Positions 655 to 55,340 of a DNA stretch of 64,000 nucleotides are shown here, in pieces. Positions within the stretch are counted from its first letter, which is position 1; each line of letters opens with the position of its first letter. Both the position numbers and the translations under genes were made by a program. The notes below the pieces were generated by a model. That model saw nothing but the letters and a program-made list of their open reading frames with translations. It ran no database searches and was not told the origin of the DNA. The stretch is from Opitutia bacterium (GTDB lineage: Bacteria; Verrucomicrobiota; Verrucomicrobiia; Opitutales; Opitutaceae): the NCBI GenBank assembly GCA_016217545.1, contig JACRHT010000003.1:233501-297500 (forward strand), read 5' to 3'.

Positions 655-729
655 CGTTTGATGCCCGACCCAAATCGGACTCCCGTTGAAGGGGCGCCGC
701 TCCGACGCCACTCGGCGCGTTTCGCGGCG

Positions 730-835
730 CCTGCTGTTTCCTTCGTCGGCATGATCCGTTCAGGTTCCAAGGGTCGAGCGGCCGTTCGCACCGCAATCTC
801 AGCCTTCCGCGGAAGACACCCCTACAGGCGACGCG
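730..835 (-). promoter_or_regulatory. TPP (THI-box) riboswitch in the leader of the TonB-dependent receptor
   Basis: The minus strand reads GUAGGGGUGUCUUCCGCGGAAGGCUGAGAUUGCGG...CUCGACCCUUGGAACCUGAACGGAUCAUGCCGACGAAGGAAACAG. This matches the conserved THI-element blocks seen in E. coli thiM: GGGGUG, CUUC..GAAGGCUGAGA, ACCC, AACCUGAUCUGGAUAAUGCCAGCGUAGGGAA. It ends about 78 nt upstream of the receptor ATG. Confidence 0.85.
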
Positions 836-18873: not shown

Positions 18874-18943
18874 CGTGGCGTAGTTCTACGCCATGGGCCG
18901 CGCGCTTGCGGTCTGGTAAGACTTCGGTGTGCTAGACGTGCCC

Positions 18944-19600
18944 ATGGCCACTGCCCCTTCCGCCGCCCTCACGTTCGTCCTCGTCGACGACACGGCGACG
19001 TTCCGCGGTTTGTTGAAGGACGCGCTGCAACGGCGTTTTCAGCCGCGCGCGCTGCACGATTTCGGCAACGCGCACGAGGCGCTCGCTGCGTGCCTCGCGC
19101 AGCCGCCGGATTTGCTGATCGTGGATCTCTATCTGCGCGAGGCGGACGGCCGCGACCTGGTCCGCGCGCTGCGGCAACGCGGACTGGCCACGAAGGTGGT
19201 CGTGCTCACGGCGCATCCCGAAGCGCAACTGCCGGCGGAACTCGTCGCGCTCGGCGTGGCGGGATTCGTGGACAAGAATTCACCGTTCGAGCAGATCGAT
19301 CGCGCCGTGCAATGCGTGCTCGATGGCGGCATGTTCTTCTCGGCCACGGTGCCGCCTCCGGTGCCGTCGTCGCTCGCGAGTTTGCCGGATTTGCCGCGCC
19401 TCGGCGCCGACGCGCTCTCGGAACGCGAGCGCGAGGTCGTGCGGCTCGTCGCGCGCGGCATGGTCTCAAAGGAGATCGGCGCGCAGCTAGACCTGAGCAC
19501 GCGCACGGTGGAAAAGCATCGCGCGCGCATCCTGGCGAAACTCGGCCTGCACGATGTGGCAACGCTCGTGCGCTGGTGTCTGAGGAACGGGCTGGGTTGA
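18944..19600 (+). CDS. LuxR/NarL family response regulator
   Basis: Receiver domain (FVLVDD...DLLIVDLYL) plus a C-terminal LuxR HTH (LSEREREVVRLVARGMVSKEIGAQLDLSTRTVEKHRARILAKLG). ATG 18944 is preferred over GTG 18929. Confidence 0.88.
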   Translation: MATAPSAALTFVLVDDTATFRGLLKDALQRRFQPRALHDFGNAHEALAACLAQPPDLLIVDLYLREADGRDLVRALRQRGLATKVVVLTAHPEAQLPAELVALGVAGFVDKNSPFEQIDRAVQCVLDGGMFFSATVPPPVPSSLASLPDLPRLGADALSEREREVVRLVARGMVSKEIGAQLDLSTRTVEKHRARILAKLGLHDVATLVRWCLRNGLG

Positions 19601-19648: not shown

Positions 19649-21673
19649 TCACTTCGCCGCCACCGGCAGCAGCACGCGGAACACCGCACCTTTGCCGGGC
19701 TGCGATTGCACTTCGAGGCGACCGCCTTGCAGCGTCAGCAGCTCGCGCGCGATGAAAAGCCCGAGGCCGGTCGAGTCCTCCCCTTCCCCCGTCGGCTTCG
19801 CGGAGAGTTTTTGGTAGGGCGCGAAGATTTTCGCGAAGTCCGCCGGCCCAAGCCCAGGGCCGCTGTCGCGCACCTCGGCGAAGGCCCACGCGCCGGCTTC
19901 GCCAAGCGCGACGGTGATGTCGCCGCCGGGCGGGGAGAATTTCAGCGCGTTGCCGATGAGGTTGTCGAAGACCTGGCGCAGACGCTCCGGGTCGGCGAGC
20001 ACGCGCGACACGGGCGCGGCGGCGGGAGCGAGCGTGAGGCGTTGTTCCTTTTGCGCGGCGATGGGGCGCAGGCTCTCGACGGCGGTGCGCGCGAGTTCGG
20101 CGAGATCGAGCTCGGTGGTGTGCAGCTGAAGGTTGCCCTCCTCCATCGCGGAAGCGTCGAGGAAGTCGCGCACGAGCGTGCGCATGCGCGCGGTGTCGGC
20201 CTGGATGCCGGCGGCGAGGCGGCGGACGTTGGGTTCGTCGTGCGGCGCGCGCGCGATGAGACCGGCGGTGGCATTGAGCGCGGTGAGCGGAACCTTGAGA
20301 TCGTGCGACGCCATTTGCAGGAGGCGCGATTTCAGCGCCTCCGCCTCCTCGGCCTGCGCGCGGGCGCGCTCGGTGGCGGCGCGCATCTTGCGTTCGGCGC
20401 GCAGACGGACGAGTTGCACGAGAATGACCGCACCGAGCAGAGTGACGCCGCCGATCAAGCCGGCGGCGAGGGCGAGATTTTGCGAGCGGCGCTGCTCGAG
20501 TTCGGCGGTCTTCACATCCTGATCGCGGCGCAGGAGACGGATCTGGAGCTCGCGCTGCTCGTCGCGATAGCGCGCGCGCAACTCGTCCATGCGGCGCCGG
20601 TCCTCCTCGCGCTGGAGTTGCTCGGTGGCGGCGGCGAGTTTGCGCTGGCTGTCGAGGGCGAGAGCGAGTTCGCCGCGCGCCTCGTAGGTCACGGCGAGTT
20701 CGCGATGAATCTCGGCGAGCACCTCAGCGCTTTCGAGCGTGCAGGCAACTTGGAGGGCGGTGAGGAGGTGCGCGAGCGCCTCGTCGAGCCGGCCGGCGTG
20801 GCGGAGAACGGTGCCGAGTCGGCGGTGCGTGTTGGCGATGTAGCGACGATACTTGAGCGCCTCGAAGGTGGTCAGCGCGCGGCTGAGATAGCTGAGCGCT
20901 TTTTCGGTGTCGCCCTGGCCATCGGCCGCGAGGCCGAGATTGGTGAGCGATTCGGCGATGGCGCGGCGGTTGCCGTAGCCTTCGCGCACGTGGAGGGCTT
21001 CGCCGTGGATCGAGATGGCGCGCGGGTAATCTCGTTTGCCGAGGTAATAGTTGCCGAGGCTGTTGAGCAGACTGGCGCGCATGCGCTCGTCCTTCGCGTC
21101 GAGGGCGTAAGCGAGACCACGATTGAAGTGCTGCAGCGCGTCCTCGTCGCGCCCGTAGCGCTGGTAAGTCAGGCCGAGTCCGCCGTGGGTGCGCGAGAGC
21201 AGTGCGGCATCGCCGAGCGATTCGGCGAGGCGCAACTCCTCGAGGTGGCGCTCAAGCGAGCCGGGGTAATCGCTGAGGTTCCAGTAGAGGCGGCCGAGCA
21301 GGTAGAGAAAATCGATCTGCAGGCGGACGTCGCCGAGCTTGCGGGCGCGAGCGAGTCCGTCGCGCGCGCCGGCGAGGCCGTCCGAATAGTCGCCGCGGCG
21401 GCGCTGGAGGTTCACCACGGTGACGAGCGCGTGGAGCGCATCGGACTCGTTGGCCGATTGCGCGAGCGTCTGCCGCGCGGCTTCCCAAACCTCGTCGCCG
21501 TCGGGCGTCTCGGAGTCCGTGGCGGTGGAAACCGGTGGCCCCGGATCGCGAGCGACGCGCGGCGCCGATTGGGCGCCGGCGAAGAGCGGCAGCCCGAGCA
21601 GCACTAGCAACCAGCACGCGTGACGGAACACGGCCGGCAAATCGCCAGAAGCGCCGCGGGCTTTCAATGCCAA
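19649..21673 (-). CDS. Sensor histidine kinase with N-terminal TPR repeats
   Basis: Signal or TM segment, several TPR-like repeats, a TM, a coiled coil, HisKA (MASHDLKVPLTAL) and HATPase_c (GLGLFIARELLTLQGG). The track start is a TTG, so the true start is uncertain. Confidence 0.85.
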   Translation of the reverse strand: MALKARGASGDLPAVFRHACWLLVLLGLPLFAGAQSAPRVARDPGPPVSTATDSETPDGDEVWEAARQTLAQSANESDALHALVTVVNLQRRRGDYSDGLAGARDGLARARKLGDVRLQIDFLYLLGRLYWNLSDYPGSLERHLEELRLAESLGDAALLSRTHGGLGLTYQRYGRDEDALQHFNRGLAYALDAKDERMRASLLNSLGNYYLGKRDYPRAISIHGEALHVREGYGNRRAIAESLTNLGLAADGQGDTEKALSYLSRALTTFEALKYRRYIANTHRRLGTVLRHAGRLDEALAHLLTALQVACTLESAEVLAEIHRELAVTYEARGELALALDSQRKLAAATEQLQREEDRRRMDELRARYRDEQRELQIRLLRRDQDVKTAELEQRRSQNLALAAGLIGGVTLLGAVILVQLVRLRAERKMRAATERARAQAEEAEALKSRLLQMASHDLKVPLTALNATAGLIARAPHDEPNVRRLAAGIQADTARMRTLVRDFLDASAMEEGNLQLHTTELDLAELARTAVESLRPIAAQKEQRLTLAPAAAPVSRVLADPERLRQVFDNLIGNALKFSPPGGDITVALGEAGAWAFAEVRDSGPGLGPADFAKIFAPYQKLSAKPTGEGEDSTGLGLFIARELLTLQGGRLEVQSQPGKGAVFRVLLPVAAK

Positions 21674-21684
21674 TTCCCCGCCCC

Positions 21685-21760
21685 GGAAAACATGAAGGGG
21701 CCGCCTCTGCAGGCGACCCCTTCACGACCTAACACCAAGCAAACCGTAAGAACTATCGAG
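21685..21760 (-). ncRNA. Candidate small RNA A (ECF-type promoter + conserved 30-mer + terminator)
   Basis: The minus strand has TTCAAC (21787-21792), a 16-nt spacer, then CGTCT (21766-21770). This is followed by UAGUUCUUACGGUUUGCUUGGUGUUAGGUC, hairpin GAAGGGGUCGCC/GGCGGCCCCUUC (21694-21723) and AUGUUUUCC. No coding potential. Confidence 0.3.
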
Positions 21761-21842
21761 GGGAAAGACGCAGTGGCGGCGAAAACGTTGAATTTTTCTC
21801 GGAAATTTTTTCGGGACCGTGAAGAGGCGAACTTCGACCCCG

Positions 21843-21947
21843 GTAAACATGAAGGGCGCCCCTCGCGGGGCGCCCTGCATGACCTAACACCAAGCAAACC
21901 GTAAGAACTACAAACAATGTTCGTTTTGAACGACGCACTGATGCGTT
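21843..21947 (-). ncRNA. Candidate small RNA B (paralogue of A)
   Basis: The minus strand has TTCAAC (21975-21980), a 17-nt spacer, then CGTCT (21953-21957). It carries the same 30-mer as A. The hairpin is AGGGCGCCCC-GCGA-GGGGCGCCCU (21853-21876), a different stem sequence with pairing retained, followed by UCAUGUUUAC. Confidence 0.3.
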
Positions 21948-22122
21948 CAGATAGACGCAGGCTCGCTCAGAAACGTTGAAAATTTCCCGAACGAATTTTG
22001 TGAACAACTTCTTCGGAATTCAGCTGGTGTTTCGCGTTGGCCCCAAGTGAGTTGTGCGACGGTTCGGTTCCGGTTTCAGGGCGCGGTAACGCGCCCCGCC
22101 TTGTCATAATCGCACGGAAACC

Positions 22123-22863
22123 ATGAACCCTCGTCCCCACCTGTTCGGCGTCCTCGCCGGACTGTTTCTCGCCGCCGGCCTGGCCGGCTCGGCCGCCATC
22201 GTCGCCTCGACGCTCACGCGCCTGAACGACAGCAATTCCATCAACGTTACCGGCGCTGCACGCCGCAACGTCCGCTCCGATCTCGTGATTTGGAACGCCA
22301 GCTTCAGCGCCGATGCGCCGACGCTGCTCGAGGCGCAGCAGCGCCTGCAAGCCGACCTCGCGAAGGTCACCGAGTTTCTTCGCCAGCACAACGTCACCGA
22401 AATCGCGGCCGAACCGGTCGTCATCCGTGAGCTCACCACGAAGCGAAAGCTCGAAGGCGACGACGGAAACTACGCCGTCGTGCGAGTGGGCTACCGGCTC
22501 ACGCAGGCGTTCGAAGTGCGCTCGAGCGACGTGGAAGGCGTGCCGAAGCTGGCTGCGAATTGCGGGCCGTTGATCGAGCAAGGCGTCGCGCTCGCGTCGG
22601 GCGGCTTCGCGTTCATCTACACGAAAGCCGGCGAAGCGAAGGTCGAAATGATGGCCGAGGCCACGAAGGACGCTCGCGCTCGGGCGGAGCTGATCGCCGC
22701 GCAAGGCGGTCGCCGCGTCGACGGGCTGCGCAGCGCGAAGGTGGGCGTCGTGCAAATCAACCCGCTGCACTCGAGCGCGACGAGCTGGGAGGGCAACAAC
22801 GACACGACCGCCCTCGACAAGACGATCATCGCCACGATCAGCGCATCGTTCGCAATGAAGTGA
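22123..22863 (+). CDS. SIMPL domain-containing protein (DUF541, periplasmic/immunogenic protein family)
   Basis: 246 aa with an N-terminal TM. Layout INVTGAARRNVRSDLVIWNASF...YRLTQAFEVRS...AEATKDARARAELIA is typical of SIMPL/DUF541. Confidence 0.7.
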   Translation: MNPRPHLFGVLAGLFLAAGLAGSAAIVASTLTRLNDSNSINVTGAARRNVRSDLVIWNASFSADAPTLLEAQQRLQADLAKVTEFLRQHNVTEIAAEPVVIRELTTKRKLEGDDGNYAVVRVGYRLTQAFEVRSSDVEGVPKLAANCGPLIEQGVALASGGFAFIYTKAGEAKVEMMAEATKDARARAELIAAQGGRRVDGLRSAKVGVVQINPLHSSATSWEGNNDTTALDKTIIATISASFAMK

Positions 22864-22995: not shown

Positions 22996-23087
22996 AGGTG
23001 GGCGCTGACGTCCTCGGCGGCGCCGCGCGAACGTGGCCCATGCCGCGATCGCAGATCTCGCCGCCGCCGGGACGGCGGCGACCACCT
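22996..23087. repeat. Inverted-repeat element family B, copy 1
   Basis: Left arm AGGTGGGCGCTGACGTCCTCGGCGGCG (22996-23022), right arm CGCCGCCGCCGGGACGGCGGCGACCACCT (23059-23087). The right arm is near-identical to 39664-39688. It abuts the kamA stop codon. Confidence 0.65.
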
Positions 23088-24277
23088 CAGAGATGCACTT
23101 CCGCCGGCACGATCTTGCCGGCGTTTTCTTTTTCGCGCACCGGCGTGCTCTTGAGCGGGTAGCGGAATTGCCGGCCCTCGAAGTTGTGGAAGACCACTTC
23201 GTCGTCGGTGATTTGCTCCAGATACTCCGGGTTGATCGGCACCTTGCCACCGCCGCCGGGCGCATCGATGACGTATTGCGGCACCGCGTAGCCGGTGGTG
23301 TGGCCGCGCAACGCCTGGATGATCTCGATGCCCTTGCGGACGTCGGCCTTGAAGTGCGCGCCGCCCGTGATGAGGTCCATCTGGTAAATGTAGTAAGGCC
23401 GCACGCGCATCCGCAGCAGGCGATGCACGAGCGCCTTCATGACGTCGGCATCGTCGTTCACGCCGCGGAGGAGCACGCTCTGGTTGCCGAGCGGGACGCC
23501 GGCGAAGGACAGACGCTCGAGCGCGTCCTTCAACTCCTGCGTGGCTTCGCGCGGGTGGTTGGCGTGGATGCTCATCCAGATCGGGCCGTGCTTCTTGAAC
23601 ACCTCGCACAGCTCGGGCGTGATGCGTTGCGGCAGAAAAATCGGGATGCGCGAGCCGATGCGGATGAACTCCACGTGCTTGATCGCGCGGAGGCGGCCGA
23701 GGAGATGATCGAGCTTCTTGTCCGAGAGCAGCAGCGGATCGCCGCCGGAAAGGAGGACGTCGCGAATCTCCGGATGCGCCTCGATGTAGCGGAGGCCCTG
23801 CTCGTATTCTGGGTGGAAGTTGTAGTCCTGCGCGTTCGAAACGAGGCGGCTGCGCGTGCAATACCGGCAGTAGCTCGCGCAGCGATCCGTCACGAGAAAC
23901 AACACGCGATCCGGATAACGGTGCACAAGTCCGGGCACCGGCGAGTGCTCATCCTCGCCGAGCGAATCGAGCATCTCTTCCTGTGACGTGATCGATTCGT
24001 CGATGCGCGGGATGACCTGCTTGCGGATCGGGCAGTTCGGGTCGTTGCGATCAATCAGGTTGAAAAAATACGGCGTGATCGCGAGGGCGAGCTTGTGGCT
24101 GGCGAAGAGGCAACCGGCTTTCTCCTCGGGCGTGAGCGTCATGAGGCGCTCGAGTTGCTCGACCGTCGTGATGCGGTTCTTCAGCTGCCACGTCCAATCG
24201 CGCCAGTCGCTTTCCGGGATGTGCTGCCAGAGACCCTGGCCTTCAAACCAGGCGGCGCGATCTTCGATGTAAGGCAT
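23087..24277 (-). CDS. kamA: Lysine 2,3-aminomutase (KamA-type radical SAM enzyme)
   Basis: 396 aa. Collinear with Clostridium KamA as I recall it: DWRDWTWQLKNRI, LAITPYFFNLID, PVPGLVHRYPDRVLFLVTDRCASYCRYCTRS (CxxxCxxC), LLSGGDPLL, GNQSVLLRGVND, YYIYQMD, DAPGGGGK. The last motif is KamA-like rather than EpmB-like. Confidence 0.88.
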   Translation of the reverse strand: MPYIEDRAAWFEGQGLWQHIPESDWRDWTWQLKNRITTVEQLERLMTLTPEEKAGCLFASHKLALAITPYFFNLIDRNDPNCPIRKQVIPRIDESITSQEEMLDSLGEDEHSPVPGLVHRYPDRVLFLVTDRCASYCRYCTRSRLVSNAQDYNFHPEYEQGLRYIEAHPEIRDVLLSGGDPLLLSDKKLDHLLGRLRAIKHVEFIRIGSRIPIFLPQRITPELCEVFKKHGPIWMSIHANHPREATQELKDALERLSFAGVPLGNQSVLLRGVNDDADVMKALVHRLLRMRVRPYYIYQMDLITGGAHFKADVRKGIEIIQALRGHTTGYAVPQYVIDAPGGGGKVPINPEYLEQITDDEVVFHNFEGRQFRYPLKSTPVREKENAGKIVPAEVHL

Positions 24278-54770: not shown

Positions 54771-55340
54771 TCAGGGCGCCGGCGTTTCGCTCGCCCGGAT
54801 CTTCTCGAACAACCAGGCACGGGCGTAGGCCCAGGTGCGCTTGGCGGTGCGTTCGGAGATGCCGAGCAATTCGGCGGCTTGCGTGAAGGTGAATCCGCCG
54901 AAGAAACGCAGGCGCACGAGCTCGGCGGCGTCGGGGTCGAGCACGGCGAGGCGCTCGAGGGCGTCGTTGAGCGCGAGCACGCTTTCCTCGGTGGCGTCGG
55001 CGGCGACCTGGATGGCGTCGAGATCGACGCGCACGAGTTTGCCGCCGTGGCGGACCGCGGCCTTGCGGCGCGCGCGGTCGACGAGGATGTGCCGCATGGT
55101 CTCGGACGCGGAGGCGAAGAAGTGGCGACGGTTCTCCCACGTGCGGGTCGGATCAGCGAGGAGCTTGAGGAAAGCTTCGTGCACGAGCGCGGTGGGTTGG
55201 AGAGTCTGGCCGCCGGGTTGTTTGGCGAGCTTCAGGGCGGCAGCGTGGCGGAGTTCCTCATACATCAACGGAAGGAGCTGCGCCGCACCTTGCGGGTCCT
55301 GCTCCTGCGCGGCGCGCAGCACTTGAGTGAGTTCCGACAT
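54771..55340 (-). CDS. ECF sigma factor, TIGR02999 (kinase-associated) type
   Basis: 189 aa. The N-terminal pattern LTQVL...A..LLPLMYEELRHAA...TLQPTALVHEAFLKLL is characteristic of the ECF family that pairs with Ser/Thr kinases. Its stop is 3 nt before the kinase start. Confidence 0.85.
   Translation of the reverse strand: MSELTQVLRAAQEQDPQGAAQLLPLMYEELRHAAALKLAKQPGGQTLQPTALVHEAFLKLLADPTRTWENRRHFFASASETMRHILVDRARRKAAVRHGGKLVRVDLDAIQVAADATEESVLALNDALERLAVLDPDAAELVRLRFFGGFTFTQAAELLGISERTAKRTWAYARAWLFEKIRASETPAP

Follow-up and report, generated by a model that had tools for sequence, protein, structure and literature searches.

A divergent intergenic space in a 64,000-nt stretch of DNA from an Opitutia bacterium (Verrucomicrobiota, Opitutaceae; assembly GCA_016217545.1, contig JACRHT010000003.1, positions 233,501 to 297,500; hereafter the window) carries a tandemly duplicated module on its minus strand. 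Sequence comparison indicates that its two units are paralogous adjacent genes of one predicted small RNA (sRNA) family, which is conserved across the Opitutaceae and absent from Rfam. Comparison with relatives shows that the two predicted genes are autonomous, which of the two strands is the RNA, that the RNA has two helices and an exposed invariant strand, and that each gene follows a stringent promoter. The most likely mechanism, to which a probability of about 0.6 is assigned, is that two adjacent and independently transcribed genes are induced by a stress sigma factor and that their products act in trans by base pairing. While this kind of regulator is itself well known, the predicted family is new and well supported for the Opitutaceae.

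Architecture, distribution and structure of the family

The module lies between a TPR-HisKA-HATPase kinase gene (19649-21673, minus strand) and a SIMPL/DUF541 gene (22123-22863, plus strand); all positions given here are those of the window and refer to the minus strand unless stated otherwise. Between 21676 and 21985, two units each contain paired promoter-like boxes, an identical 30-mer (UAGUUCUUACGGUUUGCUUGGUGUUAGGUC), a GC hairpin and a short U tract. In unit 1, TTCAAC (21980-21975) and CGTCT (21957-21953) are separated by a 17-nt spacer and followed by the 30-mer (21910-21881) and by a hairpin (21881-21848) with the tail UCAUGUUUA. In unit 2, TTCAAC (21792-21787) and CGTCT (21770-21766) are separated by 16 nt and followed by the 30-mer (21755-21726) and by a hairpin (21725-21691) with the tail UCAUGUUUU. 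Both hairpins were recovered by an inverted-repeat search with 93% complementarity, the arms of the first being 15 nt long. The 30-mer occurs exactly twice in the 64 kb, against 0.00 expected from 100 shuffles, and the units form a direct repeat of 82% identity over 57 nt in which every difference falls in the stems and pairing is kept in both. The initial annotation of this DNA, made from the window alone, had described such a four-part duplicated unit with a differing but paired hairpin and a U-rich tail, and all of its parts are present on the minus strand. It had also called the region AT-richer than its surroundings, in agreement with a GC content of 0.51-0.58 in the module and 0.65-0.73 in the flanks.

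The two units would give RNAs of different length. Copy 1, the long canonical form of about 100 nt (21845..21944), has its predicted start at G21944 and its predicted end in the U tract at 21847-21845. It would begin with a 5′ hairpin, P1 (CAGUG..UCGU..ACGA..CAUUG, 21915..21940), which is supported by RNAfold and by covariation. P1 is followed by a near-invariant G/U-rich single strand of 37 nt (UUGUUUGUAGUUCUUACGGUUUGCUUGGUGUUAGGUC, 21881..21917), which contains the 30-mer and is the presumed seed or binding platform. The predicted intrinsic terminator (21845..21881), also detected by a terminator scan, comprises a GC-rich stem-loop (21881-21848; 15 bp, GCGA loop) and UUU at 21847-21845. With about 71 nt (21687..21757), copy 2 is the short form and would start at G21757 without P1; its predicted start runs straight into AUAGUUCUUACGG and the conserved strand (21755-21726) is thus at the 5′ end. 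The inverted-repeat search places its terminator stem-loop at 21725-21691, with the U tract at 21690-21687. The predicted RNA ends (21944-21845 and 21757-21687) were derived from promoter geometry, the start being placed at a conserved G that lies 13 nt beyond the C of CGTCT, and from the position of the U tract.

An exact scan for the 20-nt core ACGGTTTGCTTGGTGTTAGG in one genome per species (596 Gb) located it in at least 120 genome stretches, where about one chance match is expected by our own arithmetic. Among the matches listed, every record that names a lineage belongs to the Opitutaceae, Opitutales, Opitutia or Verrucomicrobia. The cultured carriers are Oleiharenicola lentus, Oleiharenicola sp. 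Vm1 and Opitutaceae bacterium D2-102. Carriers come from soil, peat, freshwater, groundwater and wastewater, and the window sequence was found in bioreactor and groundwater metagenomes. The shared architecture comprises a promoter-like region, a short leader (GUAGUCAG or ACAUCAG), P1, the near-invariant strand, a GC-rich hairpin and a U tract. A covariance model (R1), built from 114 copies, finds additional copies that lack the exact core and carry AAGG, TAGG or GTTTGT variants; the deepest invariant part, the 19-nt GGUUUGCUUGGUGUUAGGU, is kept even in copies found by the model only. In the window, R1 matches copy 1 at 21831-21946 (105.7 bits, E=2.6e-26) and copy 2 at 21674-21788 (64.7 bits, E=9e-15). 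Rfam returned nothing for the module at the gathering threshold, an E-value scan (E up to 10) of positions 21500-22200 gave only noise (best 21.5 bits vs a cutoff of 114), and no description of this RNA was found in the literature searched.

Most of the 123 loci compared carry a single long form (97 loci), and 11 carry two long forms. The order long then short, as in the window, is found at 8 loci (also in L001, L007, L029, L034, L078, L085 and L092, by the locus numbers used here), short then long at 2 and a single short form at 4; at one locus the array is truncated where the contig ends. Short forms differ from long ones by the lack of P1, with promoter and terminator retained. The window type would begin with (G)AUAGUUCUUACGG and looks like the product of a deletion between two GUAGU motifs. 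In a second type (L098, 1902-2000; L113, 4441-4540), the leader GUAGUCAGCA is kept and the P1 hairpin alone is missing, and these two kinds of short form indicate that P1 was lost independently at least twice. In L001 and L007, whose kinases are 88% and 82% identical to that of the window, both units lie upstream of the kinase gene with conserved boxes and non-conserved spacers; their 30-mers are unchanged but for one copy with a single change, and their hairpins show compensatory or wobble changes. The U tract is missing after the short-form terminator of L007 (3905-3950), where CAUGCUCGG follows, and read-through into the kinase gene may occur there.

The predicted structure is supported by folding and by covariation. 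Fold z-scores are -4.3 for copy 1 and -5.8 for copy 2, and RNAfold predictions for about 100 family members place the P1 hairpin at the same position with many different stem sequences. Covariation was evaluated in a model-based alignment of 102 long-form copies, which is fitted to the structure and favours it; in this alignment 90.5% of the pair cells are standard, compared with 76.6% after column shuffles and 41-54% when the partners were slid by 1-3 columns. Changes on both sides are found in 19 of the 23 pairs (8/8 in P1 and 11/15 in the terminator), and none of 500 shuffles reached any of the five measures used. In the terminator helix 93% of the cells are paired, and RNAalifold recovered the terminator with 10 covarying pairs from a plain MAFFT alignment. 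The initial annotation had made its proposal depend on conservation and covariation in relatives, and both were observed, with at least 120 genome stretches and two covarying helices. G-U pairs are frequent (e.g., UG in 26/102 and 31/102 cells at two terminator pairs), and the 6 nt after the long-form stem contain 3-6 T in 102/102 copies. Because these G-U pairs would be A-C mismatches on the opposite strand and because the T run follows the stem, the RNA strand is assigned to the window minus strand. Consensus structures leave the G/U-rich strand unpaired, and conservation across the 102 copies is at least 95% at the positions on either side of the searched 20-mer.

The promoter and its likely reader

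In the window, the putative long-form promoter (21950..21995) consists of an A/T-rich upstream tract, a -35-like box TTCAACGTTT (21980-21971), a non-conserved gap of 12 nt and a -10-like box GCGTCTATC (21958-21950). The short-form promoter (21763..21812) is composed of the A/T-rich tract AAAAAATTTCCGAGAAAAA, the same -35-like box TTCAACGTTT (21792-21783) and a -10-like box GCGTCTTTC (21771-21763). The initial annotation had compared the two units and recognized conserved boxes around a non-conserved spacer, the pattern of promoters read by extracytoplasmic function (ECF) sigma factors, and this pattern holds across 126 non-redundant copies whose CGTCT boxes served as the anchor of a logo. Read from 5′ to 3′, this logo shows A/T-rich sequence followed by TT(G/C)A(G/A)CGTTT and, after a gap of some 11 nt, by GCGTCTAT(C). 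Unanchored positions are nearly invariant (T-22 in 125/126, A-19 in 124/126 and C+7 in 122/126), C-17 and G-16 are kept in 107/126 and 106/126 copies, and the spacer carries 0.07-0.4 bits. From the C of AAC or AGC to the C of CGTC, the distance is 16 nt in the family logo and 17 nt in unit 1 of the window. The 13 short-form promoters carry the same boxes as those of the long forms, with 19-40 nt from the CGTCT box to the core in short forms and 54-60 nt in long forms.

ECF promoters are characterized by a rigid spacer and high stringency, and the structurally defined promoter of M. tuberculosis sigma-H combines GGAAYA, a rigid spacer and an extended -10 element, G-11 T-10 T-9 NNN S-5 (PMC6411747). 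Judged by AAC and CGT(C) at a rigid spacing of 16-18 nt, the window sequences TTCAAC-N17-CGTCT and TTCAAC-N16-CGTCT fit the ECF type. Moreover, the G-T-C-N3-C element of the family (GTC-TAT-C) parallels the extended -10 element of sigma-H, its last C being kept in 122/126 copies. These features support a stringent promoter of ECF-sigma geometry for each of the two predicted genes. A scan for sigma-70 promoters found nothing in the sRNA region. An ECF-type sigma factor is the likely reader of this promoter because the geometry is sigma-H-like, the sigma-70 scan was empty and a sigma-70 -10 box would here be without the essential A at position 2. Promoters of sigma-54, sigma-28 and sigma-32 were considered and rejected, as the box sequences do not fit their consensus.

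The promoter motif is specific to the family, as 104 of 108 matches in about 1 Mb of locus sequence precede an sRNA copy; the other four comprise a variant sRNA copy and three matches that appear to be due to chance. The initial annotation had pointed to the ECF sigma gene located in the same window (54771-55340), but nothing links the promoter to that gene, and no motif was found upstream of it. This sigma factor is of the TIGR02999 (Sig-70_X6) type, and the window contains no sRNA-type motif elsewhere.

Neighbouring genes and RNA libraries

All open reading frames (ORFs) within 3.5 kb of the sRNA were clustered across the 123 loci. In this comparison, the conserved neighbour is a KamA-family radical-SAM gene (lysine 2,3-aminomutase-like) and not the kinase gene. 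In the window it is found at 23087..24277 on the minus strand and encodes a protein with the Pfam domains Radical_SAM and LAM_C, which scores 360 bits against TIGR00238 (cutoff 199) and falls below the equivalog cutoffs for AblA, EpmB and other aminomutases. This gene (~396 aa) lies upstream of the sRNA on the same strand in 100/123 loci, and its stop codon precedes the predicted sRNA start by 140 nt in the median and by no less than 31 nt. A search for its homologues gave a best 120 that are all at least 84% identical and labelled Opitutaceae, and the outer limit of the family was not reached among them. A gap of 31 nt leaves no room for a separate terminator, so the KamA mRNA would end at the sRNA terminator there, and in such genomes the two probably share it, as judged from their position. 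The window and 26 other loci have a SIMPL gene on the opposite strand between KamA and the sRNA, which makes the sRNA clearly autonomous in these 27 loci. With the gap of 31 nt (L037, L065 and L107), the sRNA promoter directly adjoins the end of the KamA coding sequence or overlaps with it, an arrangement embedded in the 3′ untranslated region (3′-UTR).

The gene downstream of the sRNA varies, with a TonB-dependent receptor at 32 loci, the TPR kinase at about 7 and others elsewhere; hence the constant downstream gene expected of a leader, an attenuator or a riboswitch was not found across the 123 loci. This bears on the second proposal of the initial annotation, that the units are tandem attenuators in a leader controlling the TPR histidine kinase. 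The same orientation of the kinase gene, the ~55 nt between the copy 2 terminator and the kinase start, and the conceivable read-through at the L007 terminator that lacks a U tract are in line with such a role. However, the module is absent at the kinase orthologues L006 (78% identical), L008 (74%), L003 (72%) and L005 (61%), and R1 has no match in these module-free kinase loci, where the kinase gene comes after a tRNA, a cation-efflux gene or a MoaA-like gene. The assembly with L008 carries the sRNA on another contig (L075). Kinase homologues are named from the Opitutaceae (Opitutus, Lacunisphaera, Oleiharenicola and Cephaloticoccus), and a TTGAAA hexamer precedes the GTG codon by 28-30 nt in all kinase orthologues (21631-21667 in the window; L001, L003, L006, L007 and L034), with or without the module. 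Each unit also has a promoter of its own, and the invariant, unpaired region before the terminator shows no conserved antiterminator fold. Because the downstream gene varies and the TTGAAA box of the kinase is independent of the module, the association with the kinase is considered incidental, and the attenuator proposal, which is highly improbable, is rejected. As for the kinase gene itself, the hexamer suggests a promoter of its own and a leaderless or very short-leader mRNA; the real start would then be GTG 21631 (660 aa, as in the orthologues) and not TTG 21673.

The sRNA sequence is present in RNA libraries, which give neither its strand nor its boundaries. More than 20 metatranscriptome runs, which sampled soil, peat, compost, freshwater, estuary and wastewater, contain core 31-mers, and assembled contigs from 16 runs align over the sRNA. 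At L033, which comes from a fen genome, the matched wetland metatranscriptomes give similar low contig depths over KamA, the sRNA and the genes downstream. One soil contig begins at GGACAUCAG, beside the predicted start, a single observation that carries no weight.

Proposed mechanism, rival explanations and known systems

The first proposal of the initial annotation, two independent sRNA genes with ECF-type promoters, is favoured by a family model of more than 100 members, by the conservation of the promoter and by the covariation of the helices. According to this model, an alternative (ECF-type) sigma factor would switch on both genes under some stress, and the RNAs would be released at their own terminators. 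The exposed G/U-rich strand may then pair in trans with C/A-rich sites of several mRNAs and alter their translation or stability, as sigma-E sRNAs do and as GcvB does with its G/U-rich R1 region. Duplication could raise the dose and yield two forms with different 5′ ends, with P1 protecting the 5′ end of the long form and the short form exposing the strand at its 5′ end, as in RybB. The ancestral site would be the 3′ region of the KamA-family gene, and some of the RNA may come from read-through of the KamA mRNA.

Several observations weigh against this mechanism. At logo position -18, G is found in 62 copies and A in 55, hence about half of the family carries AGC and not the ECF hallmark AAC, and the -35-like box starts with TTGA, as in sigma-70 -35 boxes and in the housekeeping boxes of this genome. 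In about 1 Mb of loci searched, the promoter motif precedes no other gene, including the ECF sigma gene of the window. Since copies were collected by exact matching, part of the invariance seen in the central 20 nt follows from the scan itself, and the 37 invariant nucleotides exceed a typical seed, which could mean a protein partner. When the 37-nt strand was compared with both strands of the window by RNAduplex, G-U pairing with GC-rich DNA dominated and only its own antisense stood out. Similarly, complementarity to this strand is no higher in the translation-initiation regions of the KamA, SIMPL and TonB-dependent receptor genes than in internal controls. All exact complements of at least 11 nt in the ~1 Mb of loci are the sRNA genes' own antisense; these target searches were low-powered, as they covered the window, the loci and the neighbouring genes and not complete genomes. 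Finally, the metatranscriptome contigs are strandless, break at strain variation and cover the promoter and the flanks at similar depth.

Two alternatives would remove the independent RNA gene altogether or tie it to its neighbour. That the module is a small-protein gene or a DNA repeat (a repetitive extragenic palindromic (REP)-like element, a transposon end or a recombination site) is suggested by mechanical minus-strand ORFs of 52-84 codons that cross it (21722-21880, 21664-21897 and 21753-22007) and by its nature as a direct repeat with palindromes. These ORFs are not conserved, and the spacing between units, 155 nt in the window, 205 nt in L001 and 152 nt in L007, does not keep the reading frame among relatives, in line with the lack of coding potential noted in the initial annotation. 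A coding function is excluded by this spacing, by a core that is invariant at all three codon positions and by loop lengths that change by non-multiples of 3. A DNA repeat would have to account for the single, syntenically fixed locus in each genome stretch and for covarying helices with G-U pairs on one strand only, so that this explanation is hardly credible. It is less improbable, although still unlikely, that the RNA is mainly an element of the KamA mRNA 3′-UTR, i.e., a shared terminator or stabiliser or a processed sRNA tied to KamA. The same-strand KamA gene upstream at 100/123 loci, a gap that at its shortest offers no space for another terminator, and contigs that cross the promoter into the sRNA all speak for such a role; these contigs may contain DNA, however. 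A strongly conserved promoter precedes every copy, including second tandem copies and those separated from KamA by the SIMPL gene, and the KamA translation-initiation region has no special complementarity to the conserved strand (-20.9 kcal/mol against -19.9 kcal/mol for the internal control), both of which speak against this role.

The remaining alternatives keep the two genes and change their reader or their mode of action. A promoter read by the housekeeping sigma factor, which would make the RNA constitutive, is the most serious of them, even if an ECF-type reader is considered likelier. Its -35-like box begins with TTGA, like TTGACA, and other promoter-like sites of the window start similarly (TTGACG before a thiamine pyrophosphate (TPP) riboswitch, TTGAAA before the kinase); the AGC of half the family and the failure to find a cognate ECF sigma in the ~1 Mb motif search point in the same direction. 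In contrast, a 17-nt spacer gives GTCTAT as the -10 box, without the essential A at position 2, while TATCTC would need 20 nt; the sigma-70 scan was empty, and the near-invariant CGTC...C with rigid spacing represents ECF traits (PMC6411747). The invariant G/U-rich strand could also be a protein-binding or sponge platform that titrates an RNA-binding protein or another RNA. The length of the near-invariant stretch (37 nt, with a deepest core of 19 nt), greater than that of most seeds, its three evenly spaced NGGU motifs (ACGGU, UUGGU and UAGGU) and the absence of any mRNA target in the window, the ~1 Mb of loci and the neighbouring initiation regions are consistent with this role. However, multi-target sRNAs, GcvB among them, likewise keep long invariant single strands, the power of the target searches, confined to these sequences, was very low, and the motifs differ from the GGA-in-loop sites that characterize CsrA/RsmA sponges; pairing in trans is therefore preferred to a platform, which is an improbable role. 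A CsrA-type sponge in particular was rejected, as there are no GGA loops. Slightly more doubtful still is the idea that the 37-nt strand is a docking site for an invariant protein or RNA partner and that the RNA is functionally coupled to the KamA-family aminomutase, e.g., via a beta-amino-acid or translation-factor-modification pathway. If so, the family would be an ECF-controlled ribonucleoprotein regulator of a new kind, confined to Verrucomicrobiota.

The preferred reading, sRNAs induced by a stress sigma factor and acting by base pairing, has counterparts in other bacteria. The sigma-E sRNAs MicA, RybB and MicL of Enterobacteria are short RNAs that are transcribed from ECF-type promoters, carry a conserved single-stranded seed and end at an intrinsic terminator; the seed of RybB is at its 5′ end, and MicL lies in the 3′ part of a protein-coding gene with its own promoter. 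The family described here resembles them by its length of ~70-100 nt, its ECF-type promoter geometry, its unpaired conserved strand and its terminator, the short form carrying the conserved strand at the 5′ end like RybB and the locus lying near the 3′ part of a coding gene with its own promoter like MicL. The comparison with MicA and RybB made in the initial annotation therefore stands as a resemblance and not as membership: there is no homology in sequence or structure, no Rfam match, and the phylum is another one. The promoter boxes are TGA(G/A)CGTTT and CGTCTAT, unlike the GGAACTT and TCAAA of sigma-E promoters, and the conserved strand is G/U-rich and 37 nt long, unlike the seeds of these sRNAs.

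The best functional analogy for the invariant strand is GcvB (RF00022), in which a long conserved G/U-rich single strand between hairpins pairs with C/A-rich sites of many mRNAs. The predicted RNA has a similar open strand between hairpins; unlike GcvB, it has no Rfam match, about half the length and another type of promoter, and it follows a KamA-family gene instead of being divergent from a gcvA-like regulator. GsrN of Caulobacter, an sRNA of ~100 nt with a 5′ hairpin that is activated by an EcfG/SigT-type ECF sigma (GGAAC-N16-CGTT), is comparable in length, 5′ hairpin and promoter geometry. It is not homologous, however, and its functional site is a hairpin loop, whereas a long open strand is found here. 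As in type I 3′-UTR sRNAs (DapZ, MicL), the predicted gene lies directly after, and sometimes abuts, the same-strand stop codon of a conserved gene with which it probably shares the terminator; unlike in these sRNAs, the opposite-strand SIMPL gene intervenes in the window and at 26 other loci.

Regulatory RNAs are almost unrecorded in Verrucomicrobiota, and a 2022 review counted only 8 annotated sRNAs for the whole Planctomycetes-Verrucomicrobia-Chlamydiae (PVC) group (PMC9029176). The present family adds a clear predicted promoter, a structure and a candidate seed. It may serve as a handle for identifying which alternative sigma factor and which stress control it and for studying post-transcriptional regulation in polysaccharide-degrading Opitutaceae. 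Furthermore, the covariance model R1 could seed an Rfam family and aid the annotation of metagenome-assembled genomes.

Three minor features of the window were observed in addition. A LuxR/GerE-type response regulator gene (18929-19600, plus strand) is convergent with the TPR kinase gene in all kinase loci examined and is likely the cognate two-component partner of the kinase. A segment of ~50 nt (TTATGACAA..GGGCGCGTT.CCGC, 22070-22120, minus strand) abuts the SIMPL start codon; the same segment is kept in L007 (3515-3570) without a SIMPL gene and may be the remnant of a deleted gene. The TPP riboswitch (721-833, minus strand) matches RF00059 with 59.5 bits, above the gathering score, and is preceded by a sigma-70-like sequence, TTGACG-N17-TTCGTT.

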